Below are positions 20,965 through 32,831 of a stretch of DNA of 64,000 nucleotides, piece by piece. Positions within the stretch are counted from its first letter, which is position 1. Each line of letters begins with the position of its first letter. The notes beneath the pieces were generated by a model, which worked only from the letters and a program-made list of their open reading frames with translations, was not told the DNA's origin and did no database searches. The position numbers and the translations under genes were made by a program. The DNA is from an uncultured Acidobacteriota bacterium (GTDB lineage Bacteria; Acidobacteriota; Vicinamibacteria; Vicinamibacterales; 2-12-FULL-66-21), in NCBI GenBank assembly GCA_963750935.1, contig CAVVSR010000004.1, forward strand, positions 20,829 to 84,828, written 5' to 3'.

Positions 20965-22554
20965 TCACCGTGCGACCCCGAAGCAATAGAGGACGCCGTC
21001 GAAGGTCGCGAGATACGCGCGGCCGTTCGCGACAGTGAGTCCGCTGAAGTGATTCCACGATTCGATCGTCGTGCCGCTCGACCAGAGCTCCTTGCCGGTC
21101 TGCGCGTCGAGCGCGTAGAGCGCGGCCTTCCTGGAATTGGGCACGCGGCGCACGGGACCCGAGCTGAGGCCGCCGCCGTAGACGCCGCCGCCAGGTTCGT
21201 CCCAGGCCCGATCCTGCACGACCTGGGTGCCGTCCTCGCCTGCCGCATACGCGAACACGACCCCGTTGGCGATGACCGCTTCATCCGCCAGATCCATGTC
21301 GCGCGACAGCCACGCCGGCGTGAGCTGCCACTTGCCGGCACGCCCTTCGAGCTTGAACGCGGCGACGCCGCCACCCTTCGGCCGCGAATGCTCGACCGGC
21401 GCCTTGAACGTCTCGCTCACCGGTCCCCAGAACGGCGCCAGCACCCACTGCGTGCCCTTCGCGTCCTGCCACGCGCCGAGCGCGCCCCAGATCCCTTTCG
21501 CGTCGAAGGCCTGCGCATCGTTGCAGATCAGCGGCGTCGTGTGCAGCGTGGTCCGGTGGTCCTCGCCGCCGAGCGCGTCGCGATCCATCAGCCAGAGGCG
21601 GCATTCCTTGGAGGTGCCGACCAGGAACTTGCGCCCCTGCGTGTCGAACGCCACCGGCGTGGTGTTGACGTCGAGGTCGCGCCGCCACAGCCAGTTCGCG
21701 TTGGGCGCGCCGAAGAAATCCACGAGCTGCAGCTGCTTGTTCGCGTCCAGCTTCACGGCGACGATGCCGTTGCCGAGCCGCCGGGTCAGCGGATCGAACA
21801 TCGCGTCGCCGGTGCCGAGGAACACGCGCCCTTCCGGATCGATCGCCGCGCCGCGCCGTCCCCAGAGGCCGCCGCCGGCGGGAATGAACGCGCTCGACCG
21901 CCGGGACGAGAGGTCGAACGAGTAGAACGCGTTGGTCAGGCCGCCGCAGCCCTGCGCCGTCGCCGTATAGATGACGCCGCCGTGCAGGTTGAGCGCATAC
22001 GGCTTGCCGCCGCCGGGGATGAACTTCTCCGCCGCGGCGATGTCCTTGCCGTCCGCGGCGTTCACCTGCCGGAGCCGGCCGTCCCACGACACCGCATACA
22101 CGGTGTACGCGCCGTCCGCCGTCCGTGCCATCGTCGGCACCGCGGTCTGGCCGCCCGGGCACAGGGTGTCGTTGGTGCCGCCGGGCTTCGCCAGCGTGCT
22201 GTCCCAGCGGCGGTGCCAGATCTGCTTGCCGGTGGCGGCGTCGATCCCGAACAGATCGTCCGACACGCCGGCGACGATCGCGATCTCGCGCGCCCCCTCC
22301 GCGGTGGTGACCCGCTCGGCGATCAGCGGCGCGAACAGGTTGTGCATCGCGCGCGGCGTGCTCTCCAGCTTGGTCTTCCACAGCAGCTTCGTCTGCCCGA
22401 CGTTGGCGGTCGAGAAGACCTTCTCGTCCCGCACCCAGCCGGTCCGCGCGCTGTCCACGCCTTCGCTGAGGATATCGGTGGCGTTCCCTGTGATCCCCGC
22501 GGCCAGGGTTGCGATCGCCACCCCCGCCACACTCCATGCGCCCGCCCGTTTCAT
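20965..22554 (-). CDS. Exported PQQ-type beta-propeller protein
   Basis: Signal peptide, DSARTGW, LLWKTKL, IDAATGKQIW, GLWGRRG, LYALDAQTGKELWSSG. Confidence 0.85.
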   Translation of the reverse strand: MKRAGAWSVAGVAIATLAAGITGNATDILSEGVDSARTGWVRDEKVFSTANVGQTKLLWKTKLESTPRAMHNLFAPLIAERVTTAEGAREIAIVAGVSDDLFGIDAATGKQIWHRRWDSTLAKPGGTNDTLCPGGQTAVPTMARTADGAYTVYAVSWDGRLRQVNAADGKDIAAAEKFIPGGGKPYALNLHGGVIYTATAQGCGGLTNAFYSFDLSSRRSSAFIPAGGGLWGRRGAAIDPEGRVFLGTGDAMFDPLTRRLGNGIVAVKLDANKQLQLVDFFGAPNANWLWRRDLDVNTTPVAFDTQGRKFLVGTSKECRLWLMDRDALGGEDHRTTLHTTPLICNDAQAFDAKGIWGALGAWQDAKGTQWVLAPFWGPVSETFKAPVEHSRPKGGGVAAFKLEGRAGKWQLTPAWLSRDMDLADEAVIANGVVFAYAAGEDGTQVVQDRAWDEPGGGVYGGGLSSGPVRRVPNSRKAALYALDAQTGKELWSSGTTIESWNHFSGLTVANGRAYLATFDGVLYCFGVAR

Positions 22555-22764
22555 GATCATCACCGGGGGATTCTCGACGATGAACGCGATCGAGGACAAG
22601 TCGGAGGCGCGGCGGCACGGTCGTCTCGTAGTGCGAACCGCGGCCCGCGGCGCCACCCCGGCGGTTCTGGCGGGCAAACAGTCGTCGAGCGCTGAAAACG
22701 GTCGCGCCTCGTCCGCGGCGGCCCGCCTTCGGCATTTCGCGGTGAGAGACGGGACACCTTCGGA

Positions 22765-22801
22765 AAGTTAAAAGTGAAAAGTCAAAAGGGAGAAGTCAAA
22801 A
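22765..22801. repeat. AAAAGT(C/G/T) heptamer tandem repeat
   Basis: aagttaaaagtgaaaagtcaaaagggagaagtcaaaa. Confidence 0.6.
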
Positions 22802-22862
22802 TGTCGCAGGCGATGGCGCACGGGTAAAGTCATACCGTGCCCATGCATCTCAGGGAGCGTCC

Positions 22863-23393
22863 ATGCTGTCGTCGATGATTCGTGTGTCCGTGGTGTTGGG
22901 GGCGGTTCTCGGCACGGCCGTCGTGCTGGCGGCGCGGCAGGGCGCGCCGCAGGTCCTCTCGGGCGAGGGGCTGCCGGACGGTCCGGGCAAGGACGTGACG
23001 GTGAAGGCCTGCGCCCCGTGCCACGAGGCGCGGCGCGCGGCGTCGGTCAGGCTGACGCGCGAGGGCTGGGCCGCCGTGATCGACGGCATGCAGAAGCGCG
23101 GCGCCAAGGTGTCGGACGAGGAGTTTCCGATCATCCTCGACTACCTCTCGACGCACTTCCTCGGTGCGGCGCTGCAACCGCTCAACCTGAACACGGCCAC
23201 CCAGATCGATCTCGAAGCAGCCGGCGGGCTGCTGCGCCGCGAAGCGGCGGCGGTCATCAAGTATCGGGAGCAGAACGGCCGCTTCACGTCGGTGGACGAC
23301 CTGAAGAAGGTGCCGGGGCTGGACTTCAAGAAGATCGAGAGCCGCAAGGACGCCGTCGTCGTGCATGGCTCCGCCGCGGGTCGAATTGCCTGA
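22863..23393 (+). CDS. Exported monoheme cytochrome c fused to a ComEA-like helix-hairpin-helix domain
   Basis: Signal peptide, LPDGPGK..CAPCH, R.T.EGW..VIDGM..RGA, then LNLNTAT...YREQNGRFTSVDDLKKVPG. Confidence 0.88.
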   Translation: MLSSMIRVSVVLGAVLGTAVVLAARQGAPQVLSGEGLPDGPGKDVTVKACAPCHEARRAASVRLTREGWAAVIDGMQKRGAKVSDEEFPIILDYLSTHFLGAALQPLNLNTATQIDLEAAGGLLRREAAAVIKYREQNGRFTSVDDLKKVPGLDFKKIESRKDAVVVHGSAAGRIA

Positions 23394-23502
23394 CGACTGT
23401 CGGCGATCGGCGATCGGTGATCGCGCGGCGCGGTCGATCGGCTAGATCGGAGCCATCGGTCGACCGGTGTGTGTCGCCTCCTACGCAACGTCGAGGCGAC
23501 GG

Positions 23503-24474
23503 CTAGCGCGGCGCCGCCGGCGCGGGCGCGTCACGCTTCGCGTGCGGCTGCACCGGCGTGTCGCTCAGGCCGAGCGACCACTTGATCGCCTCGAACATCA
23601 TGATCTGGACGTTGCGGATGTCCCAGGCCTCGGGGCTGTGCGAGAGCGAGCTGTAGACGACGCGGCCCTGGCCGTAGGTTTTGGTCCAGACCAGCGGGAA
23701 GTCGCCGTCGGCGGCCAGCTTCGACGTGGGCGCGCTCGCCGGATCGAAGCGCAGCAGCACGTCCACCTTGTCGCGCGACAGCGCCGCGGCGCGATAGAAC
23801 TCGTCGCTGTAGTCGGCGCTCGCGCCCCAGTGGCGCACGATCGGATGCGCGGGCTGCTCGTTGACCATGCGGCCAGGTCCCGTGTAGAGGTGCCCGCCGT
23901 AGGTGGCCCCCAGCATCTCGCCGAACTCCGGCCACGATTCGAACGCGGTCAGCCCGGTGTGCGCCGCGACGAAGCCCTTGCCGCTCTGCACGAACGCCAG
24001 CAGCTCCGCCTTCTGCTGATCGTCGATCGGCACGTCGCGGTGCCCGAGGAAGAAGATCCCGTCCACGTTGCTCAGGCTCGGCCCGCCGCTCGCCGGCGTG
24101 CCGTCGGTCTTCTTCGCCTGGTTGAAGATGATGTGGGAGTCGGTGCGGATGAACGTATCCCAGAGGCCGGAGTCGTAGCCGAGCCGCTCGACGATCGCCA
24201 GCGCATGCGAGGTGAAGGCGTGCTGCGCCTGGCCATTGCGGGTGTCGGCCCAGGCGAGCAGCGCCTTGCGCACGCGGGGCTGGTTGCCTCCCCGGCCGCG
24301 ACCCTGCCGGCCGCCGCCGGCGCGGCCGCCCGGTTGATCGGGAGCCTGGCCGACTCCGGCCTGTCCACCGGCCGGCGGCTGCGGACCGCGCGCGAGCGCC
24401 GTGACCGCCAGCATCAGCGCGAGGCTGACGGCCACTGCCGGAATCCCCAACGACCTTCGTGCGTGCTGCGACAT
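23503..24474 (-). CDS. Exported ThuA-like (class I glutamine amidotransferase-like) protein
   Basis: Signal peptide, LLAFVQSGKGFVAAH, DEFY, PLVWTKTYGQGRVVYSSLSH. Confidence 0.85.
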   Translation of the reverse strand: MSQHARRSLGIPAVAVSLALMLAVTALARGPQPPAGGQAGVGQAPDQPGGRAGGGRQGRGRGGNQPRVRKALLAWADTRNGQAQHAFTSHALAIVERLGYDSGLWDTFIRTDSHIIFNQAKKTDGTPASGGPSLSNVDGIFFLGHRDVPIDDQQKAELLAFVQSGKGFVAAHTGLTAFESWPEFGEMLGATYGGHLYTGPGRMVNEQPAHPIVRHWGASADYSDEFYRAAALSRDKVDVLLRFDPASAPTSKLAADGDFPLVWTKTYGQGRVVYSSLSHSPEAWDIRNVQIMMFEAIKWSLGLSDTPVQPHAKRDAPAPAAPR

Positions 24475-25046
24475 CAGCGCTTCGCCGCCTTCTCTTCGCG
24501 AACGATCTCGACCAGCGACCGCAGCCCCGCGGTATAGGAGCGCCAGCCCAGCCCCATGATCGCGCCGCGCACCGCCGGCGTCAGGATCGAGTGGCGGTGG
24601 ATCTCGTCTCGCGTGGCGAGGTTCGAGATGTGGACCTCGAGCACCGGGAACGGCATCGCCTTGATGACGTCGTGAATCGACACGCTGCTGAACGTCAACC
24701 CGGCCCCGTTGATCAACGCCCCATCCACGTCGTCGATGTGCTTCTGGAAGGTGTCGACGATCGTGCCCTCGGAGTTCGACTGCATCGCGATCAGCTCGAC
24801 GTTGAGCTCCTTGGCGAGCTCGCCGAGCCGCGCGTTGATCTGGTCGAGGGTCGTGCTGCCGTAGATCTGCGGCTCGCGGCGGCCGAGCAGGTTCAGATTG
24901 GGCCCGTGGATCACGAGCACCCGAAGCCGAGGCGCCGGCTGTATGGCTGGCTCGACGTCCGGCCCGATCCTGGCGCCGGCCGTGGTCGAGAGCGTGGCGG
25001 CGGCAAGCGCCACCAGGAGGCTCCAGCGTCGAAACGTCACACCCAT
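24474..25046 (-). CDS. aroQ: Type II 3-dehydroquinate dehydratase with N-terminal export signal
   Basis: VIHGPNLNLLGRREPQIYG, QSNSEG, EVHISN; preceded by MGVTFRRWSLLVALAAATLSTTAGA. Confidence 0.9.
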   Translation of the reverse strand: MGVTFRRWSLLVALAAATLSTTAGARIGPDVEPAIQPAPRLRVLVIHGPNLNLLGRREPQIYGSTTLDQINARLGELAKELNVELIAMQSNSEGTIVDTFQKHIDDVDGALINGAGLTFSSVSIHDVIKAMPFPVLEVHISNLATRDEIHRHSILTPAVRGAIMGLGWRSYTAGLRSLVEIVREEKAAKR

Positions 25047-25090
25047 CGATCGCTCCTTCGGTCGTTCGTTGTGTAGGGCCAGCGACATGC

Positions 25091-26193
25091 CTATCGCAGG
25101 TGGCGACGGAAGAAGTCGCGCGCGACGGCAAAGGCGCCGGCGCGGTCCTCGCGCTGCGCTTCCGGGCCGCCGCGCGGATGCTCGCGCACCTGCATGCGGA
25201 AGGGCCCGGCCACCTCGTCCAGGTCGGTCCGGTTGAAGAAGGTATGCGGCAACCCGTCGATCAACCGCAGCGTCACGTCCCGACCCGCGTCCCTCAAGGC
25301 TTCGTAGAGCAGGACGCTCTGCCCGTGCGGGACCGAGGCGTCGGCCAGGCCGTGCATGATCAGGAACGGCGGCGCGTCCTTCGTCACGTAGGTGATCGGG
25401 CTGGCCGCGCGCACACGATCCGGCACCGTCTGGACGCCAGCGCCGAGCAGGCGCGACTCCGGAGACGCTGGATCGTCATGCGGGACGGCACCGCGTCGTC
25501 CGCCGCCCGGGGGTGGCCCGGCCGCGCCGGCCGGAGGTGGAGGCCCGCTTCCTCGCTCCCCTCCTCGCTCCCCTCCTCGTCCGCCGCCGCAACGTTGATC
25601 GTCACCACCGGCTTCTGCAGCGCCGGCCGCTCCTGCTCGGTCTGTGCGTCCATGCGGTCGAAGCGGGTTGGCCCGTAGGCATCGAGCACGCACCGGACCG
25701 CGCTCGTGTGATTCAGGTTGTCGGTCCCCTCGAACGTGCCGCGAGGCGCGAGTCCCGCGACCGCCGCGAGGTGTCCGCCAGCCGACGTCCCCCACAGGCA
25801 GATCCGATCGGGATCCAGCGCGTGCGCGGCCGCGTTCGCCTTCAGCCAGCGCACCGCGGTGCGGACGTCCTCGACGTTGGCGGGGAACGTGACCGACGGC
25901 GTCAATCGGTACTCGATGGACGCCATCGCGAAACCGTCCTGCGCGAAGTAGCGCCTGAAATCCGGCCCCGTCGTGCGTGTCCCGCCAGACCAGCCGCCGC
26001 CGTGCAGGAACACGATGACCGGGATCGGCCGCCGAACCGGGGTGGCCGGCAGGTAGAGATCGAGGACCAGATCGGCGCCGCCGCGCGTGGCGTAGGTCAG
26101 CGTCCGCGGTTCGACTGGCGCCGGCTCCTGCCGCGCGGTGATCGCCACGCTGGCCAGCACCACGGCCGCGAACGCGCCGATGACGCGGCTCAA
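25091..26193 (-). CDS. Exported alpha/beta-hydrolase esterase (HGGG-type, BD-FAE/HSL-like); frame break at about 25590
   Basis: LHGGGW, GTSAGG nucleophile elbow, [22 protein letters not shown]. Confidence 0.85.
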
Positions 26194-27590
26194 ATGAAAT
26201 CCTCCGGCCGCGGCTTGAGCGCGAGCGCGCGCTGCAGCTCCGGCGTGATCTCCCGGCTGATCGGCACACCGCAGATCGCCTGCGCGTGCGCGAGCAGCGC
26301 CGCGCGATCGGACAGCGCCGACGCCGCGCCCTTCGTCCAGATCGGATCCTGCGGCGGCAGCGGCAGCTTCGCCGGGTGGACGTCGAGCGGATAGCCGTCG
26401 GGGCCACGGCCGCTCATCTGCAGCGAGCGGAACATGTCGGCGCCGCCTCGCCCGCGACCCTCGCCTCCGGCCCGAGCGCCGCCGCGGCCGTCGCCGCGAC
26501 CCTCTCCTGCACCACGACCGCGGGCTCCGCCGCCGCCGCGCGTGAAGAAGCTCTCGAAGATGCCCGGCGTCAGGAACGCCGCGAACCGGTTGTACTCCTG
26601 GTTCAGGCGGAACCCGTGCAGGTTGCGCGGCGGCGCCTGGAAGTAGTCGCCGGTGCGGAGCGGCACGGCCTTGCCGTAGGCCCAGCCCAGGGTCTCGCCG
26701 TCGACGCCGAAGAAGTTCTCGAAGTGCCGCGCGTGGAAGTGCGCGCCGACGCCGCCCCCCGGCCCGCCTTCGGTGATGATGAACAGGAACTGACCCGTGG
26801 TGTTGGCGTTGCGCGCCAGGAAGGTGTTGCCGCCGAAGCGCTCACCGCCGCCGTCGGCCAGCACGTACGGCCCAGGCGTCACCGGCAGCTGCTTGTTGGC
26901 GACGCGAACGGCGGCACCGGCAGGCGTCGCCGCCGGCGCGAGCTGGAAGTCGCCGGCATCGGCCGCACGCGCGAGACGCCCTGCCGCGATCTCGTGCGGC
27001 ACGTTCGCCGGCACCTGCGCCCCGTCCTGCCGCTCCCCCATCGCCGTGAACGCCGCGCCGACGCGATGGTTCATCGAGAACAGCGCCAGCTGCGCCCCGT
27101 CCGACTTCATCGTCCATGCATGCGGCGTCCCGGGCGGCAGGTTGGCGAAGTCCCCGCGCATCATCGTCCAGCGCTCGTCTCCGAGCTCGAACTCGATCTC
27201 GCCGCGCATCACGAGCACCGCGGCGTGGCTGCTCAGATGCGTGTGCCGCGGCATCGTCGCGCCGGTGTTGCCGGTGAACGAGGCGAGCTCGTGGACGTCG
27301 CCGGTGTCTTCGCGCCGCGCGATCCGCCGCATCACCTGACTGCCGATGCGGTGATACTCGCCGGCGTCGTTCGGCAGCACGTACATGCGCTTCTGCCCGG
27401 GCAGCTTGCCGATGACCGGCACGGCCTCGGCGCCGCTCACCTCCACCGGGTTGAGGATCTCATCGGGAATACCCGCAACCGGGGCCTGGGCGAACAGGCC
27501 CGTCGAGCGCGACAGGTGCCAGCCCGCGAGCCCGCCGCCGGCCGCCAGGGCCGCGGTGTTCATGAACCGCCGCCGATTCCACTGTCCCAT
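26190..27590 (-). CDS. Tat-exported bicupin, quercetin 2,3-dioxygenase-like
   Basis: NRRRFM Tat motif. Cupin 1: HTHLSSHA...PGTPHAW. Cupin 2: HFHARHFE...PRNLHGF. The layout resembles Bacillus QdoI. Confidence 0.75.
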
Positions 27591-27625
27591 CGCTGCCTCC
27601 TTGAAGAACGGACGTGCCGTGACGC

Positions 27626-28459
27626 TCACGGGACCGCGACGCGGTCGGCGCTTCGCCTCACGACGTCGAAGAGCTCCTCGGGCTGCCACGAGTTCGACGC
27701 GAACATCCGCATCACCCGGCCATCGTGGCCGACCACGGCCGTCGTCAGCGTATGCGTGACGAAGCCGCCCTCGGCCCGCGCAGCGACGCCGAAATATTCG
27801 GCGATGGCTTCGATCTGCGCGGCGGTGCCCGTGGCCAGCGTCCACTGCTCGAACGGATCCGGTCCCTTCAACACCGCCTGGCCGTAGTCGCGAAGCACGG
27901 CCGGCGTGTCGAATGCGGGGTCGAGGGTGATGCCGAGCACGGACACTTTGCTGCCGAAGCCTTCGTCGTTCGCGCGCTGACGCACCCGCTCGAGATGCCT
28001 GACCATGAGCGGACAGAGATCGGGCAGCGGGCACCGCGTGTAGAGGAAAGTGATGAGGAGGACGCGGCCGGCCCGTTCGCGCACCGTCACGTCGCGGCCG
28101 TGCTGATCGACCAGGCCGAAGTCGGGCAGCATCGCACCCGGCATCGCCCGGCCGCCGGCGGAGAACCGCACCGGCGCGACGGCGCCCTGCGCCGTGATCT
28201 TCACGTCCTCGAGCCAGCTGCGATCCGCGGTCACGACGAGCGTCGACACGATTCGGTCGCCCTCTCGCGGCGGCGGGCCATCGCCCGCGATCTCGAACGG
28301 CATGCTCATCGCGGGCATGAAGCCGTCCACCGCGTCGTGCGCAATGACCACGCGGCCGGCCGGGGCTTCGCGGCCGACGACCACCCCGGTCAGTTGGACG
28401 CGGCGGATCTCGGGGGATCGATCGCGTGCGCACGCGGCTGCCGAGACGATGACCATCAA
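27626..28459 (-). CDS. CusF-like copper-binding domain fused to SCO1/SenC; true start may be 28523 via a frame break
   Basis: IAHDAVDGFMPAMSMPF (CusF H/M/M), FLYTRCPLPDLCP, DPAFDTP and VTHTL. Confidence 0.85.
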   Translation of the reverse strand: MMVIVSAAACARDRSPEIRRVQLTGVVVGREAPAGRVVIAHDAVDGFMPAMSMPFEIAGDGPPPREGDRIVSTLVVTADRSWLEDVKITAQGAVAPVRFSAGGRAMPGAMLPDFGLVDQHGRDVTVRERAGRVLLITFLYTRCPLPDLCPLMVRHLERVRQRANDEGFGSKVSVLGITLDPAFDTPAVLRDYGQAVLKGPDPFEQWTLATGTAAQIEAIAEYFGVAARAEGGFVTHTLTTAVVGHDGRVMRMFASNSWQPEELFDVVRRSADRVAVP

Positions 28460-28534
28460 CGGCAGCGGCGACCGCGCCGGATGCGCGACGTCCCGGACGC
28501 GGTCGAGCGGCGCGCTTCTCCATTGCCGGATCGA

Positions 28535-30295
28535 TCACCGGTCGGCGCAGCGATACGACGCCGCGTCGGCGGCGGGGCCGCCAAGATATTTCGGGAACTG
28601 CGGGTAGGAACACAGCGGCAGCGTGCGTCCGCCGCCGGTCAGGGCGATCGACATGCCCGGAGCAGCACGCCGCTCGACCCAATCGACGAGCAGCGCAAAC
28701 CGCTCGAACGTCGTCGGCAGCGGCGTCCGCTCCAGCGGCTTGCCGGCGCCGTCGATGTCGGCAGTGCGCGCCATCAACCCGTGATTGGCCTGGGGGATGA
28801 CGAACAGCCGCGCGAACTCGTCGACGGTGCGACGCCCCATCGTGTCGAGGACCGACTGGTAGTAGTCGAGTTGGGCACCCGGCGACGCGAGCGTGTCGTC
28901 CGTGCCGATGGTGACGATCATCTTTCCGCCGCGCTTCGCGAAGGGCCGGAGATCCGGATCGGTCGAATCGAGCACCGCGGAGAGCTCCTCGCGGCGGCGG
29001 TTCCAGCGATCGCCCTCGACGTAATCGAGCGGGTTCGCGGCCAGGTCGCGCATCAGGAAGCCGGTCACGCCGAGGACGCCGAGATGGCCGTGCACCGGCG
29101 CATCCGCGGCCGCCCCTTCCTGTCCCCTGAAGCGCACGTCGGCGATGAGGCCGCTGCCGGACGGGTCGGTGTTTGGCACCCACATGCCGAAGGTCGTGGC
29201 GCGGTGCGCCAGCGGCGTCGCGAATCGATAGCGGCTGTAGACGAACTCGAGGGTCGAGATCTGCCCGTCGGTCAGGCAGGCGGCGGCGGTCGCGTCGGAC
29301 GGATTCGGATCGACGTTGTCCGGACAGCGTCTGGCGGCCCACGGCCGGCGGCCCGGTGTGCCCTGCTTGACGTCGAAGATCGCCCGGCACGCCATGTAGG
29401 CGTTGATGACGCCGTCGGTCAGGCCGTCGAGCTGATCGCACTGCCGCACGAACTCGGCGCGGATCGCGTTGGTCTTGGCGCGCGTGATCCAGTTGGCCGC
29501 CGGCTTCTCCTGAATCCGGACCAGCTCCGGCGCCAGCATCAGCGACGAGAGCCCGACGATCGGCACGTTGGCGATCACGCCGTCGTAGTCCGCGGGATAG
29601 CGCTGCGCGACGGTCAGGCCTTCGCGTCCGCCCTGCGAGGTGCCGGTGAAGTAGGTGTAGCGCGGCGCTTCGCCGTAGACGCGACGGATCAGCGCGTGCG
29701 CGGCGTCGTGCGTTTTCTTCAACTGCAGGTAGCCGAGGTTGCGGATGGCTTCCTCGTTGAGCGCCCAGTCGTTGGACGCCGGCTCGCCACTCCTGCCCCG
29801 GCCAAACGACGACTGGTGACCGGAGTCGCTGCCGTAGGTCACGAAGCCCCACTGCGCCGGCGAGCGGCCGTCGATCGGATACTGCGCGCCGCGCAGGTCC
29901 GGAACGACCCCGTTCATGCCGCCGCCACCATGCTGCACCGCACGGCGATTCCACTCGGCGGGCAGCCAGACGCGGAAGTTGATGCGCCTGGCGGAGGGCG
30001 CCTGATCGATCGGCGCCATCGATCCGTCGACCTCGCATCGTGCCGGCAGCGACTCGCTGGCCGGCACCCACTTCGGTTCGAGCAGCGTCACTGCCGACAC
30101 CGGTTCGCCGATGGCGCTCGCCGGAATCGAGTCGCCAAGCTTCGCGACCGTGCAGTCGGCTGCGGTGATCACCACGGGACGATCGCCGAAGCGCGCGGCG
30201 GCGGGCGTCGCGGCCGGCTGGGCCGACGGACTCGCCCCGCCGGCGCTGACGGCCATCGAGAGCGCGCCCGCGGCCGTCAGGAACCGGACGTTCAT
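28535..30295 (-). CDS. Exported tannase/feruloyl esterase family protein
   Basis: WLPAEWNRR..QHGGGGMNG, GSDSGH, YFTGTSQGGREG..AQRYPADYDG, PDLRPFAKRGGKMI, PLCSYP. ATG at 30295 overlaps the upstream stop. Confidence 0.9.
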   Translation of the reverse strand: MNVRFLTAAGALSMAVSAGGASPSAQPAATPAAARFGDRPVVITAADCTVAKLGDSIPASAIGEPVSAVTLLEPKWVPASESLPARCEVDGSMAPIDQAPSARRINFRVWLPAEWNRRAVQHGGGGMNGVVPDLRGAQYPIDGRSPAQWGFVTYGSDSGHQSSFGRGRSGEPASNDWALNEEAIRNLGYLQLKKTHDAAHALIRRVYGEAPRYTYFTGTSQGGREGLTVAQRYPADYDGVIANVPIVGLSSLMLAPELVRIQEKPAANWITRAKTNAIRAEFVRQCDQLDGLTDGVINAYMACRAIFDVKQGTPGRRPWAARRCPDNVDPNPSDATAAACLTDGQISTLEFVYSRYRFATPLAHRATTFGMWVPNTDPSGSGLIADVRFRGQEGAAADAPVHGHLGVLGVTGFLMRDLAANPLDYVEGDRWNRRREELSAVLDSTDPDLRPFAKRGGKMIVTIGTDDTLASPGAQLDYYQSVLDTMGRRTVDEFARLFVIPQANHGLMARTADIDGAGKPLERTPLPTTFERFALLVDWVERRAAPGMSIALTGGGRTLPLCSYPQFPKYLGGPAADAASYRCADR

Positions 30296-31894
30296 GGGTT
30301 CAGCACGAACGCGACGAGCCGGCTCCCCGCTCCCGCAATCACGTACTGCAGGCCGTCGAGCTCGTAGGTGATCGGCCCGTTGGTCACGCTGTTGCCGACG
30401 CGCGCGTTCCAGAGCGGCTCGCCGGTGGTGGCGTTGTAGGCGCCGATGCCGCCGGCCGCGGCATTGAACAGGACGTTGCCCGCGGTGGTCAGGATGCCGG
30501 AGTTGCCGCCGTAACGGGGCATGCTCCAGCGCACCTTGCCGGTCTTGTAGTCGATCGCCTTCAACTGTGGCTGCTCGGCATAGCCGCCGCGATCGGTGCC
30601 GCCCCACCCCATCGGATTGTCGCTGGCGTCGTAGATGTACCAGACGCTGAACGCCCGCGTGGCATTCACATAGAAGAGGCCGGTCTGCGGACTGAAGCTC
30701 GGGGGAAACCAGTTGGTCGCGCCCCCCTGGTTCGGGCGTGACGAGCGCGCCGGCGATCTGCGGCCGCTTCTCCGGGTTCGGAATCGGCTGCCCCTTGCCG
30801 TCGTAGTCGAGGCTCCAGTTCGTCTTGATGTACTCCGACGAGACGACCGCCTTGCCGTTGGTCCGGTCGAGCAGGAAGAAGTGGCCGTTGCGCGACGCCT
30901 GCGCGATCAGCTTGCGCGGCTGGCCGTTGATCGTGCCGTCGAAGACCACCGCCGTCTGCGTCGCGTCCCAGTCGTGCGTGTCGTGCGGCGACGACTGGAA
31001 GTACCAGACCATCTTGCCCGTGTCGGCGTCGAGCGCCACGATCGACGCGGTGAACAGGTTGGCGCCTTCGCGGTTCTTGAACGCCACCACCGGCTGCGGG
31101 TTCCCGGTCGTCACGTAGATGTGATTCAGCACGGGGTCGTAGGTGATCGGCTGCCACGTCATGCCGCCGCCGTGCTTGGCCATGTCCAGGTTCGGCCAGG
31201 TGTCGAGCCCCGGTTCGCCTTCCTTCTGCGGCGTCACGTACCAGCGCCAGATCAGGTCGCCGTTCTCCGGGCTCCGCGCTTCGAGATACGCCGGCACGTC
31301 GAGGTCGTCGCCGCTCGGCCCGAGAATCAGCTTGTCCTTCACGACCACCGGCGCGATCGAGCCGTAATACATCATCTCCAGCGAGCAGAACTCCTTGGCC
31401 CACTTCTCGACGCCGGTCTTGATGTCGAGCGCCACGAGGTTGCAGTCCGTGGTGACGAAGTACACGGTGGTGCCGTGCACGGCGACGCCGCGATTGCCGA
31501 TCAGGATGCCGCCGCGGCTGCGGGTGAACGTGTAGTGCCACAGCTCGCGGCCGGTCCGCGCCTCGACCGCATACACGTGATTCGGCGTGGTGAAGTAGAG
31601 CACCCCGCCGATCTGGAGCGGCGTCGCCTTGATCGTGCCCCCGCCCGGCAGGTCGTAGAGCCACGCCAGGCTCAGATGCTTCACGTTGGCCGCCGTGATC
31701 TTGTTCAGGCTGCTGAAGCGGCGGCCGGAATAGTCCCCGTTGTAGGTCGGCCAGGAATCGCTCGACGGCTTTTCGATCTGTGCGGTGGTCAGGCCGGCCG
31801 ACCCGCCGGCCGGCGCGGCCTGCGGCGAGGGCTGCTGTGCGGCGAGCGCCGCCGACAGGAGAACGGCGGCGCAAAGACAGGTGACGACTCTCAT
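30292..31894 (-). CDS. PQQ-dependent dehydrogenase-like protein (acido-empty-quinoprotein group A type); frame break at about 30730
   Basis: WPTYNGDYSGRRFS, IKATPL, GGGMTW, SPHDTHDWDA, QASRNG; C-terminal NGPITYELDGLQY in the next frame. Confidence 0.88.
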
Positions 31895-32831
31895 TTCAGG
31901 GTCTCCAGGTAGGCAACCAGATCGTGAATCTGCTTGTCGCTGATGCGGTCGAGCAGGTCGATGTGCGCTTGCAGCGGGACGACCCTGGTGACCTTGATGC
32001 CCGGGGTGCGACGGACGACGCGAAGCGTGCCGTCCGTTTCACGCACGGTGATGTGGAAGTCGCTCTCCTCGACCAGCACTCCGGACACCGCGGGACCGGA
32101 CGCCGGCGTCAGCGTCACGGTGACGGCGTTCCGATCGACCGGCGGAGGTGTGCCGGTCGGATTGGCCGCCGCGCCGCCGCTCCCCGGCCGCCCCGTCCGC
32201 GGCCGCGTCCGCCGCCGCCGGGGAACAGCATCCGCTGCTGCAGGTCGACCGGGACCGGGATGCGCGTCGCGATTCCCGCAAGGTTGCGGTCGGTGGCGGT
32301 ATGGCACGTCGCGCACCCGCCGTCGCCCTTGAAATACGCCTCGCCAGCCTTCGCGTCGCCGACGACGATGTCGCCGACCGTGAACAGCGGCGAGCCGCGC
32401 ATCGTGTCGTTGACGCGCTGGCGGAGGAAATTCGCCAGCCCCACCACCTCGTCGTCAGTGAACGACTCGCTCGGCTTCTTGCTCTGCGTCGGGTGACCGG
32501 CCTTCAGAAAGGGCCCGAGGACGCTGCCGGCCACGGCCGCGAACCGATCGTAGTTCACCGTCTTCGTCCGGATGATGTTCGGGCCGGTATCCGACCCGCG
32601 CGCCTGCGAGCCATGGCAGTCGATGCAATGGCTCGCCCACAACGCGCGGCCGCGATCGTGAGCCGTCTGATCGACGACCAGGCGGGGCGCCGGCTGCACC
32701 GCGGGAGTCTGGGCCGGCGGCGGTGCGCCGCGTCCTCCGCCGCCCGGAGGCCCCTGCGCCGGGAGCATGGTGACCGCACAGAACACCACGGCCACACCCA
32801 TCGAGATCCGCTGACCCACACCGATGCCCAT
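31891..32831 (-). CDS. Diheme c-type cytochrome, partner of the quinoprotein; frame break at about 32190
   Basis: GGAGG RBS, signal peptide, CIDCH, GDAKAGEAYF..CATCH, C-terminal IHDLVAYLETLK overlapping the quinoprotein start. Confidence 0.88.

Follow-up and report, generated by a model that had tools for sequence, protein, structure and literature searches.

Quinate and its esters, such as the chlorogenic acids and galloylquinates, are major plant carbon inputs to soil. To our knowledge, the only well-described periplasmic route for quinate is that of the Acinetobacter/Gluconobacter type. This work concerns a gene for a predicted exported type II dehydroquinase (AroQ-like) and its ThuA-domain (ThuA-like) neighbour, located in a 64,000-nucleotide stretch of contig CAVVSR010000004.1 (assembly GCA_963750935.1) of an uncultured bacterium of the Vicinamibacterales (Acidobacteriota). 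The whole stretch is referred to below as the window.

In the excerpts of PMC4213383 drawn on here, Acinetobacter baylyi converts quinate to protocatechuate in the periplasm by means of QuiA, a pyrroloquinoline quinone (PQQ) dehydrogenase, QuiB, a dehydroquinase, and QuiC, a dehydroshikimate dehydratase. In Gluconobacter, a type II dehydroquinase acts in oxidative quinate conversion after a PQQ quinate dehydrogenase (excerpts of PMC9171043 and PMC8102297). Two loci related to the one in the window, L110 and L111, share the logic of the Acinetobacter route, a dehydroquinase predicted to lie outside the cytoplasm following a PQQ dehydrogenase. At these loci, however, the dehydrogenase is soluble instead of membrane-anchored, there is no QuiC homologue and a ThuA-domain protein is found in that position. 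The Gluconobacter enzyme is likewise a type II dehydroquinase serving quinate oxidation. QuiB reportedly belongs to type I and carries an additional leader sequence, and the native Gluconobacter enzyme is said to have no signal peptide, signal sequences having been added to it by engineering.

Canonical AroQ enzymes, with structures solved from M. tuberculosis, S. coelicolor, H. pylori and others, have the same full-length PF01220 domain, catalytic residues and carboxylate binders as the AroQ-like protein. The latter differs from them in its predicted signal peptide, in Phe and His in place of His81 and Arg112 (M. tuberculosis numbering), in a score below the TIGR01088 cut-off, in its accessory status and in its ThuA-like neighbour. 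AroQ copies on proteobacterial megaplasmids (Chelatococcus, Paracoccus, Rhizobium, Shinella, Paraburkholderia, Bradyrhizobium, Terrarubrum) have the same two positions replaced and are also extra copies in catabolic settings, but they are cytoplasmic, lack the N-terminal extension, form a separate lineage, mostly have Tyr at position 112 and have no adjacent ThuA-like gene (in Terrarubrum one lies 6 kb away). As for the partner, the literature consulted treats ThuA only as a component of the ThuAB 3-keto-disaccharide dehydrogenase (excerpts of PMC8121099) or presumes it to be an oxidoreductase. The ThuA-like protein has the PF06283 domain in common with that ThuA and with structural-genomics ThuA-like proteins (4jqs, 4e5v, 1t0b), on which its model superposes best, but unlike ThuA it is predicted to be exported, has a Gly/Arg-rich linker and no adjacent ThuB, and matches no NCBIfam model.

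On balance, and with modest confidence, we consider it probable that the AroQ-like protein is a catalytically competent periplasmic dehydroquinase of catabolic function, carrying out its normal reaction on quinate-derived 3-dehydroquinate and tied to the ThuA-like partner; its anatomy, conservation, gene linkage and accessory status are shown by the sequence data, and we infer its export, its substrate and the order of the steps. In the proposed scheme, plant quinate, possibly freed from quinate esters by neighbouring esterases, would be oxidized to 3-dehydroquinate by a PQQ-dependent dehydrogenase outside the cytoplasm. The AroQ-like protein, exported across the inner membrane (probably through Sec) and acting in the periplasm, would then convert 3-dehydroquinate into 3-dehydroshikimate, normal dehydration being the most likely reaction. 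The ThuA-like protein would be co-expressed with it and functionally tied to it, performing or assisting an adjoining step. An exported catabolic type II dehydroquinase and its tie to a ThuA-domain partner both appear to be undescribed in the literature searched, where no account of a naturally exported type II dehydroquinase or of an AroQ-ThuA link was found (most subscription journals were outside its scope).

Predicted export and accessory status of the AroQ-like protein

The features of the locus are collected in Table 1. The PF01220 profile matches the AroQ-like protein over positions 1-137 of its 138 (E 6.7e-46, 155.9 bits against a cut-off of 23.3), and the cut-offs of the NCBIfam subfamily models NF003807 (166.4 vs 130) and NF003805 (161.8 vs 146) are also exceeded. 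The best 120 matches in a large protein collection are 72-99% identical and 175-208 residues long, and the few named ones belong to the Vicinamibacterales. About 40 residues precede the domain, consisting of a basic RR, the hydrophobic stretch LLVALAAATL and then AGA. Since AAGGAG and a 6-nt spacer precede the ATG at 25046, the ATG further upstream at 25088, which opens the longest open reading frame (ORF), is not needed.

Table 1. Features of the AroQ-like/ThuA-like locus and its neighbours (positions refer to the window).
Feature	Position	Strand	Description and basis
Exported ThuA-domain protein (predicted)	23503..24474	-	323 aa: signal peptide, Gly/Arg/Gln-rich linker, ThuA domain; translation, PF06283, alignment
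AroQ-like coding sequence	24474..25046	-	190 aa + stop; Phe119/His150 replace His81/Arg112; translation, PF01220, residue mapping to solved AroQ, clade conservation
Dehydroquinase class II domain, residues 42-178	24513..24923	-	G000:C4:45341-45751; PF01220
Predicted Sec-type signal peptide, residues 1-25 (MGVTFRRWSLLVALAAATLSTTAGA)	24972..25046	-	Putative cleavage after AGA; own heuristic
Shine-Dalgarno AAGGAG	25053..25058	-	6-nt spacer to ATG at 25046; sequence reading
BD-FAE family alpha/beta esterase, signal-like N-terminus	25091..26193	-	44 nt upstream of AroQ-like gene; PF20434 on both halves; tblastn with intact L018 homologue
Bicupin, 466 aa	26190..27590	-	Twin-arginine-type N-terminus, AAGGAGG upstream; also beside the pair in L018
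SCO1/SenC-type protein, CusF-like N-terminal part	27626..28459	-	Also in L018
Tannase/feruloyl-esterase family protein	28535..30295	-	PF07519 E 2e-90; own signal-like start; 3.5 kb upstream of the AroQ-like/ThuA-like pair

Signal character was scored by a home-made heuristic (a basic n-region, a hydrophobic core and a small-x-small site), which recognized it in 111 of the 119 close homologues; the extension drifts in sequence among them and keeps this character. Together with the Shine-Dalgarno sequence before the signal-bearing ATG, this speaks for the export that the first-pass annotation of this DNA had proposed. The RR that it had pointed out is not a conserved twin arginine. It occurs in only 28 of the 119, and the 99%-identical protein P0003 has RS instead (FRSWS). 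The signal is therefore read as Sec-type and not as that of the twin-arginine translocation (Tat) system, and export of the protein would probably proceed by Sec.

Within a set of 31 related genomes, profile searches detected PF01220 in three, namely the genome of the window and its congeners G005 and G006, and not in the other 28. In all 30 same-order relatives (G001-G030, counted with G002 included) PF01487 and PF08501, the latter the N-domain of shikimate dehydrogenase, lie side by side on one contig, mostly in a single frame of ~500 codons, that is, as a fused AroD-AroE. The same domain pairing is known from plants. The G004 copy has a frame break within its AroD part. Both G005 and G006 hold the AroQ-like gene together with AroD-AroE, and the AroQ-like gene is therefore an addition. 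In a further sample of 400 Acidobacteriota genomes the exported clade was found in none and an AroQ at 38-45% identity in 20, which as a sample is not proof of absence.

The assembly that contains the window comprises 20 contigs and is 90.5% complete; in it the AroQ-like gene is the sole PF01220 match, and neither PF01487 nor PF08501 was found. Searches of this assembly with the AroD-AroE of a congener (tblastn) gave no match, and the aroDE regions of the congeners (blastn) matched only a repeated gene family. The ORFs of the 20-kb aroDE regions of two congeners had no orthologue-level match either, only a few at paralogue level (30-50% identity). Because this holds for both neighbourhoods, the housekeeping aroDE region most likely lies in the unassembled tenth of the genome. 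The first-pass annotation had regarded the protein as a paralogue off the shikimate pathway and had named, as a result that would speak against this, that no second dehydroquinase be found. None was found in the assembly, so on that count the formal outcome goes against it; the AroD-AroE of all 30 relatives, carried by G005 and G006 beside the AroQ-like gene, and the probable gap over aroDE nonetheless bear the idea out. Judged from gene content, the AroQ-like gene is an accessory paralogue that stands apart from the synthesis of aromatic amino acids.

An ordinary cytoplasmic dehydroquinase with a mis-called start would agree with the sole PF01220 match in an assembly where PF01487 and PF08501 were not found, and a GTG codon at residue 43, just ahead of the domain, could serve as its start. 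No Shine-Dalgarno sequence is visible before this GTG, however, whereas one precedes the ATG at 25046, and signal character persists in the homologues despite the drift of their sequences. As 28 of the 31 genomes manage without PF01220, using AroD-AroE, and as the aroDE neighbourhoods of the congeners lack orthologue-level matches in the assembly, this explanation is very improbable.

The C5 corner of the active site

The AroQ-like protein aligns without gaps to the solved M. tuberculosis AroQ over ~142 residues (E ~6e-32). Pro11, Asn12, Arg19, Tyr24, Asn75, Asp88, Glu99, His101, Ile102, Ser103 and Arg108 are kept; changed are His81 (Phe119), Arg112 (His150), Gly77 (Ala), Arg87 (His) and His106 (Ala). 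The motifs quoted in the first-pass annotation (GRREPQIYG, EVHISN, INGAG, (L)TFSS and RDEIHRHS) are all present in the translated frame, and this alignment agrees with its description of retained catalytic and altered substrate-binding residues.

In the portions of PMC6011038 used here, the catalytic roles are assigned to Tyr24 as base, Arg19/Arg108, the His101-Glu99 acid, the Asn12/Pro11 water site and Asp88'. The carboxylate and the C1 hydroxyl are held by Asn75, Ser103 and the backbone of 102/103, the C5 hydroxyl specifically by His81 and Arg112, and the C4 hydroxyl by Asp88'; Arg112 also helps to lower the pKa of Tyr24. The earlier statement that this His and Arg contact ring hydroxyls thus stands as far as both are substrate contacts, and is to be narrowed to the C5 hydroxyl, the one at C4 being held by Asp88'.

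In an alignment of 67 clade members the catalytic residues Tyr24, Arg19, Arg108, His101, Glu99, Asn12 and Asp88 are invariant or conserved to at least 90%, and the binders of the carboxylate and C1 hydroxyl, Asn113 (Asn75) and Ser141 (Ser103), are invariant. His150 is invariant as well, and Phe119 is found in at least 90% of the rows, the exceptions being His or Gln. Elsewhere, 115 of 150 library representatives have His at position 81 and 125 have Arg at position 112, and 78 of the 80 best genome loci have the His/Arg dyad. On the residue mapping, the rebuilding is confined to the C5 corner of the active site.

Loss of the C5-binding dyad and a partner gene that is always adjacent, often overlapping the stop codon, could also be expected of a non-catalytic protein derived from AroQ, for instance a dodecameric carrier or scaffold for the ThuA-like protein. 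A scaffold has no need of the catalytic residues, yet every one of them is strongly conserved, which leaves this idea with hardly any probability.

The same two replacements had led the first-pass annotation to a modified substrate (5-deoxy or O-acylated). The exported dehydratase would then act on a compound altered at C5, either a 5-O-acyl-3-dehydroquinate arising from oxidized chlorogenate or galloylquinate before ester cleavage, or a 5-deoxy or 5-amino analogue. Just the two binders of the C5 hydroxyl are replaced, with the contacts to the C4 hydroxyl, C1 hydroxyl and carboxylate kept, and a Phe together with the smaller His would give the C5 corner more room and less polarity. In the main chlorogenic acid it is the C5 oxygen that bears the acyl group, a BD-FAE esterase gene lies beside the pair in the window, L018 and L110, and in the window a tannase/feruloyl esterase gene is found upstream (Table 1). 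Such esterases are, however, equally compatible with hydrolysis first. L110 and L111 retain the ThuA-like partner even with His and Gln, respectively, at position 81. In addition, enzymes with Phe81 and Tyr or His at 112 are found in ordinary cytoplasmic quinate/shikimate clusters beside QuiC, so that a modified substrate is not needed to account for Phe81/His112. We regard it as possible, though unlikely.

Extra AroQ copies with Phe81/Tyr112 in quinate/shikimate-to-protocatechuate clusters were observed at PLSDB loci L208-L212 (Shinella, Paracoccus, Paraburkholderia, Chelatococcus, Rhizobium). In Chelatococcus the Phe81/Tyr112 copy lies between a tripartite ATP-independent periplasmic (TRAP) transporter and a QuiC homologue of full length (682 bits). 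The cluster of Rhizobium sp. BT04 comprises a QuiC-like gene, an ATP-binding cassette (ABC) transporter, the Phe81/Tyr112 copy, shikimate dehydrogenase and pcaHGCD, and in Paracoccus a TRAP transporter and the Phe81/Tyr112 copy are located between pcaHG and pcaF. In Rhizobium etli the same place in the cluster is taken by a His/Arg copy. Phe/His copies are found in Bradyrhizobium, between a TRAP transporter and a xylose-isomerase-like triosephosphate isomerase (TIM) barrel gene, and on the Terrarubrum plasmid, among sugar ABC transporters, a Gfo/Idh/MocA oxidoreductase and the distant ThuA-domain gene. The presence of Phe81 with Tyr/His112 in quinate-to-protocatechuate clusters argues that 3-dehydroquinate is still the substrate of the variants. 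When 401 Pseudomonadota genomes were searched with P0152, the cytoplasmic Phe/His form, there was no match at E <=1e-45, a threshold that was probably too strict, and a search of Protein Atlas with the same protein returned only generic dehydroquinase clusters.

With the two trait columns left out of tree building, a cytoplasmic Gln/Arg group comes out beside the exported clade (Shimodaira-Hasegawa-like approximate likelihood ratio test, SH-aLRT, 98) and the proteobacterial variants make up a clade of their own (98). The best tree uniting all variants is worse by 77 log-likelihood units (p-AU 0.001, from an approximately unbiased test on a 42-row subset of the 113 rows, with a quick search and with the group named after seeing the first tree). 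These sequences suggest that the C5 dyad was replaced on at least two occasions, each time in catabolic copies, which is in keeping with a change in kinetics or regulation no less than with one in substrate. The cytoplasmic sister group of the exported clade (L112, 5001-5441) has Gln in place of His81 and keeps Arg112, and its gene has neighbours of housekeeping type (topoisomerase I, M20 peptidase), so that even a presumably biosynthetic AroQ can do without His81.

The ThuA-like partner and the quinate setting

A total of 162 AroQ loci from genome and metagenome scans (best 80 loci each) were classed by residues 81 and 112 and checked for a relative of the ThuA-like gene. None of the 146 His/Arg loci has one beside AroQ. 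It directly adjoins AroQ in eight of the 11 Phe/His loci (upstream instead of downstream in one), the contigs of the other three ending no more than 130 nt from the gene. It likewise adjoins AroQ at L110, which is His/His, and at L111, which is Gln/His (49% and 53% identity to the ThuA-like protein of the window), so that every evaluable variant locus (10 of 10) has it next to AroQ. In L110 and L111 the overlap of the two genes amounts to four bases, and in the window the stop codon of the AroQ-like gene and the ATG of the ThuA-like gene share one base (TGATG).

The ThuA-like protein is matched by PF06283 with E 2e-29 (103.8 bits vs 33.4), 104 of 119 homologues have a signal-like N-terminus by the same heuristic, and many His, Asp and Glu residues are invariant in the alignment. 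Its model (predicted local distance difference test, pLDDT, 81.8) finds its best fold matches in uncharacterized ThuA-like and GATase1-like structures; a sequence search of the PDB returned only the same uncharacterized ThuA-like proteins, and an NCBIfam search returned no family. A complex prediction for an AroQ-like trimer with the ThuA-like protein scored 0.00, giving no support, and is not evidence either way. One contig of 218 nt from a soil metatranscriptome library (run X20, 3 mismatches) maps to 23665-23881, within the ThuA-like gene. It hints weakly at expression of that gene, DNA carry-over being possible; no contig of that run covers the AroQ-like gene.

ThuA being known only from the ThuAB 3-keto-disaccharide system (excerpts of PMC8121099), the pair could instead belong to keto-sugar metabolism, the AroQ-like protein performing an analogous beta-elimination on a 3-keto-glycoside or keto-cyclitol in a pathway of that type. 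The chemistry would formally be the same, with an alpha-proton beside the C3 ketone and a leaving group on C1, and the sugar-related surroundings of the Terrarubrum Phe/His copy, ThuA-domain gene included, are in line with it. The carboxylate-binding Asn75 and Ser103 are invariant, however, pointing to a carboxylated substrate. No Gfo/Idh/MocA (ThuB-type) oxidoreductase gene adjoins the pair in the window, L100, L101, L110 or L111 (one lies ~5 kb away in L018), and shikimate-family genes are present in L110. A keto-sugar substrate is accordingly held to be improbable.

L110, which comes from a different organism of lower GC content (55%), has in order a BD-FAE esterase, a PQQ dehydrogenase, the AroQ-like and ThuA-like genes, a multihaem cytochrome c, a shikimate-dehydrogenase family gene (NF009201, 431 bits) and a major facilitator superfamily transporter. 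Its PQQ dehydrogenase is soluble and signal-bearing, and its best NCBIfam model is TIGR03074 (glucose/quinate/shikimate) with 478 bits over the periplasmic part of the model. Next to the pair in L111 are a TonB-type outer-membrane protein and a PQQ dehydrogenase of 58% identity. No PQQ dehydrogenase of the quinate/shikimate family is adjacent in L018, L100 or L101. The genome of the window encodes elsewhere a PQQ dehydrogenase 50% identical to that of L110, as well as a pcaH/pcaG-like pair; LigB was not found in it. Esterase genes, all of the BD-FAE type, adjoin the pair in three of the six loci with long flanks.

Several observations weigh against a catabolic dehydroquinase acting on quinate-derived 3-dehydroquinate in the periplasm. 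Both binders of the C5 hydroxyl are replaced and Arg112 is thought to tune Tyr24, so that kinetics or specificity may differ. The equivalog cut-off of TIGR01088 is missed (154.1 vs 169.85 bits), and the signal-peptide call depends on the home-made heuristic. The Phe/Tyr enzymes of the proteobacterial clusters are apparently uncharacterized, their role being read from annotated neighbours. In the window no PQQ dehydrogenase of the glucose/quinate/shikimate type is adjacent, the nearby quinoprotein-like gene matching a different NCBIfam group (TIGR04528). A QuiC-type dehydroshikimate dehydratase was not found in the window's own assembly (tblastn gave none at E 1e-5, NF042435 only partial matches of 31 bits). 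Beyond the pair the flanks differ, with a MacB/FtsX permease fragment and a helicase in G005 and an adenylate cyclase and a short-chain dehydrogenase/reductase in G006. As the flanks vary around a constant pair, the AroQ-like and ThuA-like genes are taken as a unit.

A role of the ThuA-like protein on 3-dehydroshikimate is conceivable because its position after the dehydroquinase is that of QuiC in the proteobacterial clusters and no QuiC homologue was found. It might be an enzyme of a new type, such as a dehydratase that yields protocatechuate and replaces the TIM-barrel QuiC, in which case the pair would form a self-contained periplasmic two-enzyme module. This is a guess, and a rather doubtful one.

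Neighbouring genes and implications

The window and L018 share the BD-FAE esterase, the bicupin with its Tat signal and the SCO1-type protein, the pair being inverted relative to these; the three are conserved together in the two genomes (window 26190-28459 on the minus strand for bicupin and SCO1/SenC; L018 10637-14037). The bicupin/SCO1 set may constitute an exported copper- or metal-dependent oxidase system for phenolics. The esterase gene occupies two frames, the change from one to the other falling in a Gly/Pro-rich stretch somewhere from 25480 to 25591. Over this interval a related metagenome contig (run X3) has 11 nt fewer, which would unite the two halves in a single frame, and the break is either an assembly indel or a strain-specific frameshift.

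Further upstream, an ORF of 1119 codons (28535-31894, minus strand) was considered as a quinoprotein-tannase fusion and rejected, since its middle reads out of frame and the tannase has its own signal-like start at ~30295. The quinoprotein-like gene within it has as its best NCBIfam model TIGR04528 ("acido-empty-quinoprotein group A", 557 bits, below the cut-off) and leaves the frame after ~380 residues. Two frame breaks thus lie within 7 kb, which points to indel errors in the assembly.

On the plus strand, between the ThuA-like gene and a beta-propeller gene, positions 22863-23393 encode a small protein, exported by prediction, with a c-type haem motif (CAPCH) and a ComEA-like helix-hairpin-helix. 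A promoter and terminator scan of 22500-32500 found no promoter-like site; its five terminator-like sites are no more than chance would produce, and all lie on the opposite strand. Parts of the locus were detected in soil, rhizosphere and winery metagenomes.

Replacement of the C5 dyad in two catabolic lineages could provide a marker separating catabolic from biosynthetic AroQ, which annotation pipelines name alike. ThuA domains, widespread in soil bacteria and in those of the Planctomycetes-Verrucomicrobia-Chlamydiae (PVC) group, have no defined reaction in the literature consulted for this analysis, and a fixed pairing with a known chemistry narrows the substrate neighbourhood in which to look. 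If the ThuA-like protein does act on 3-dehydroshikimate, this would be the first defined reaction of the ThuA family and would imply a periplasmic route from quinate esters to protocatechuate in soil Acidobacteriota.

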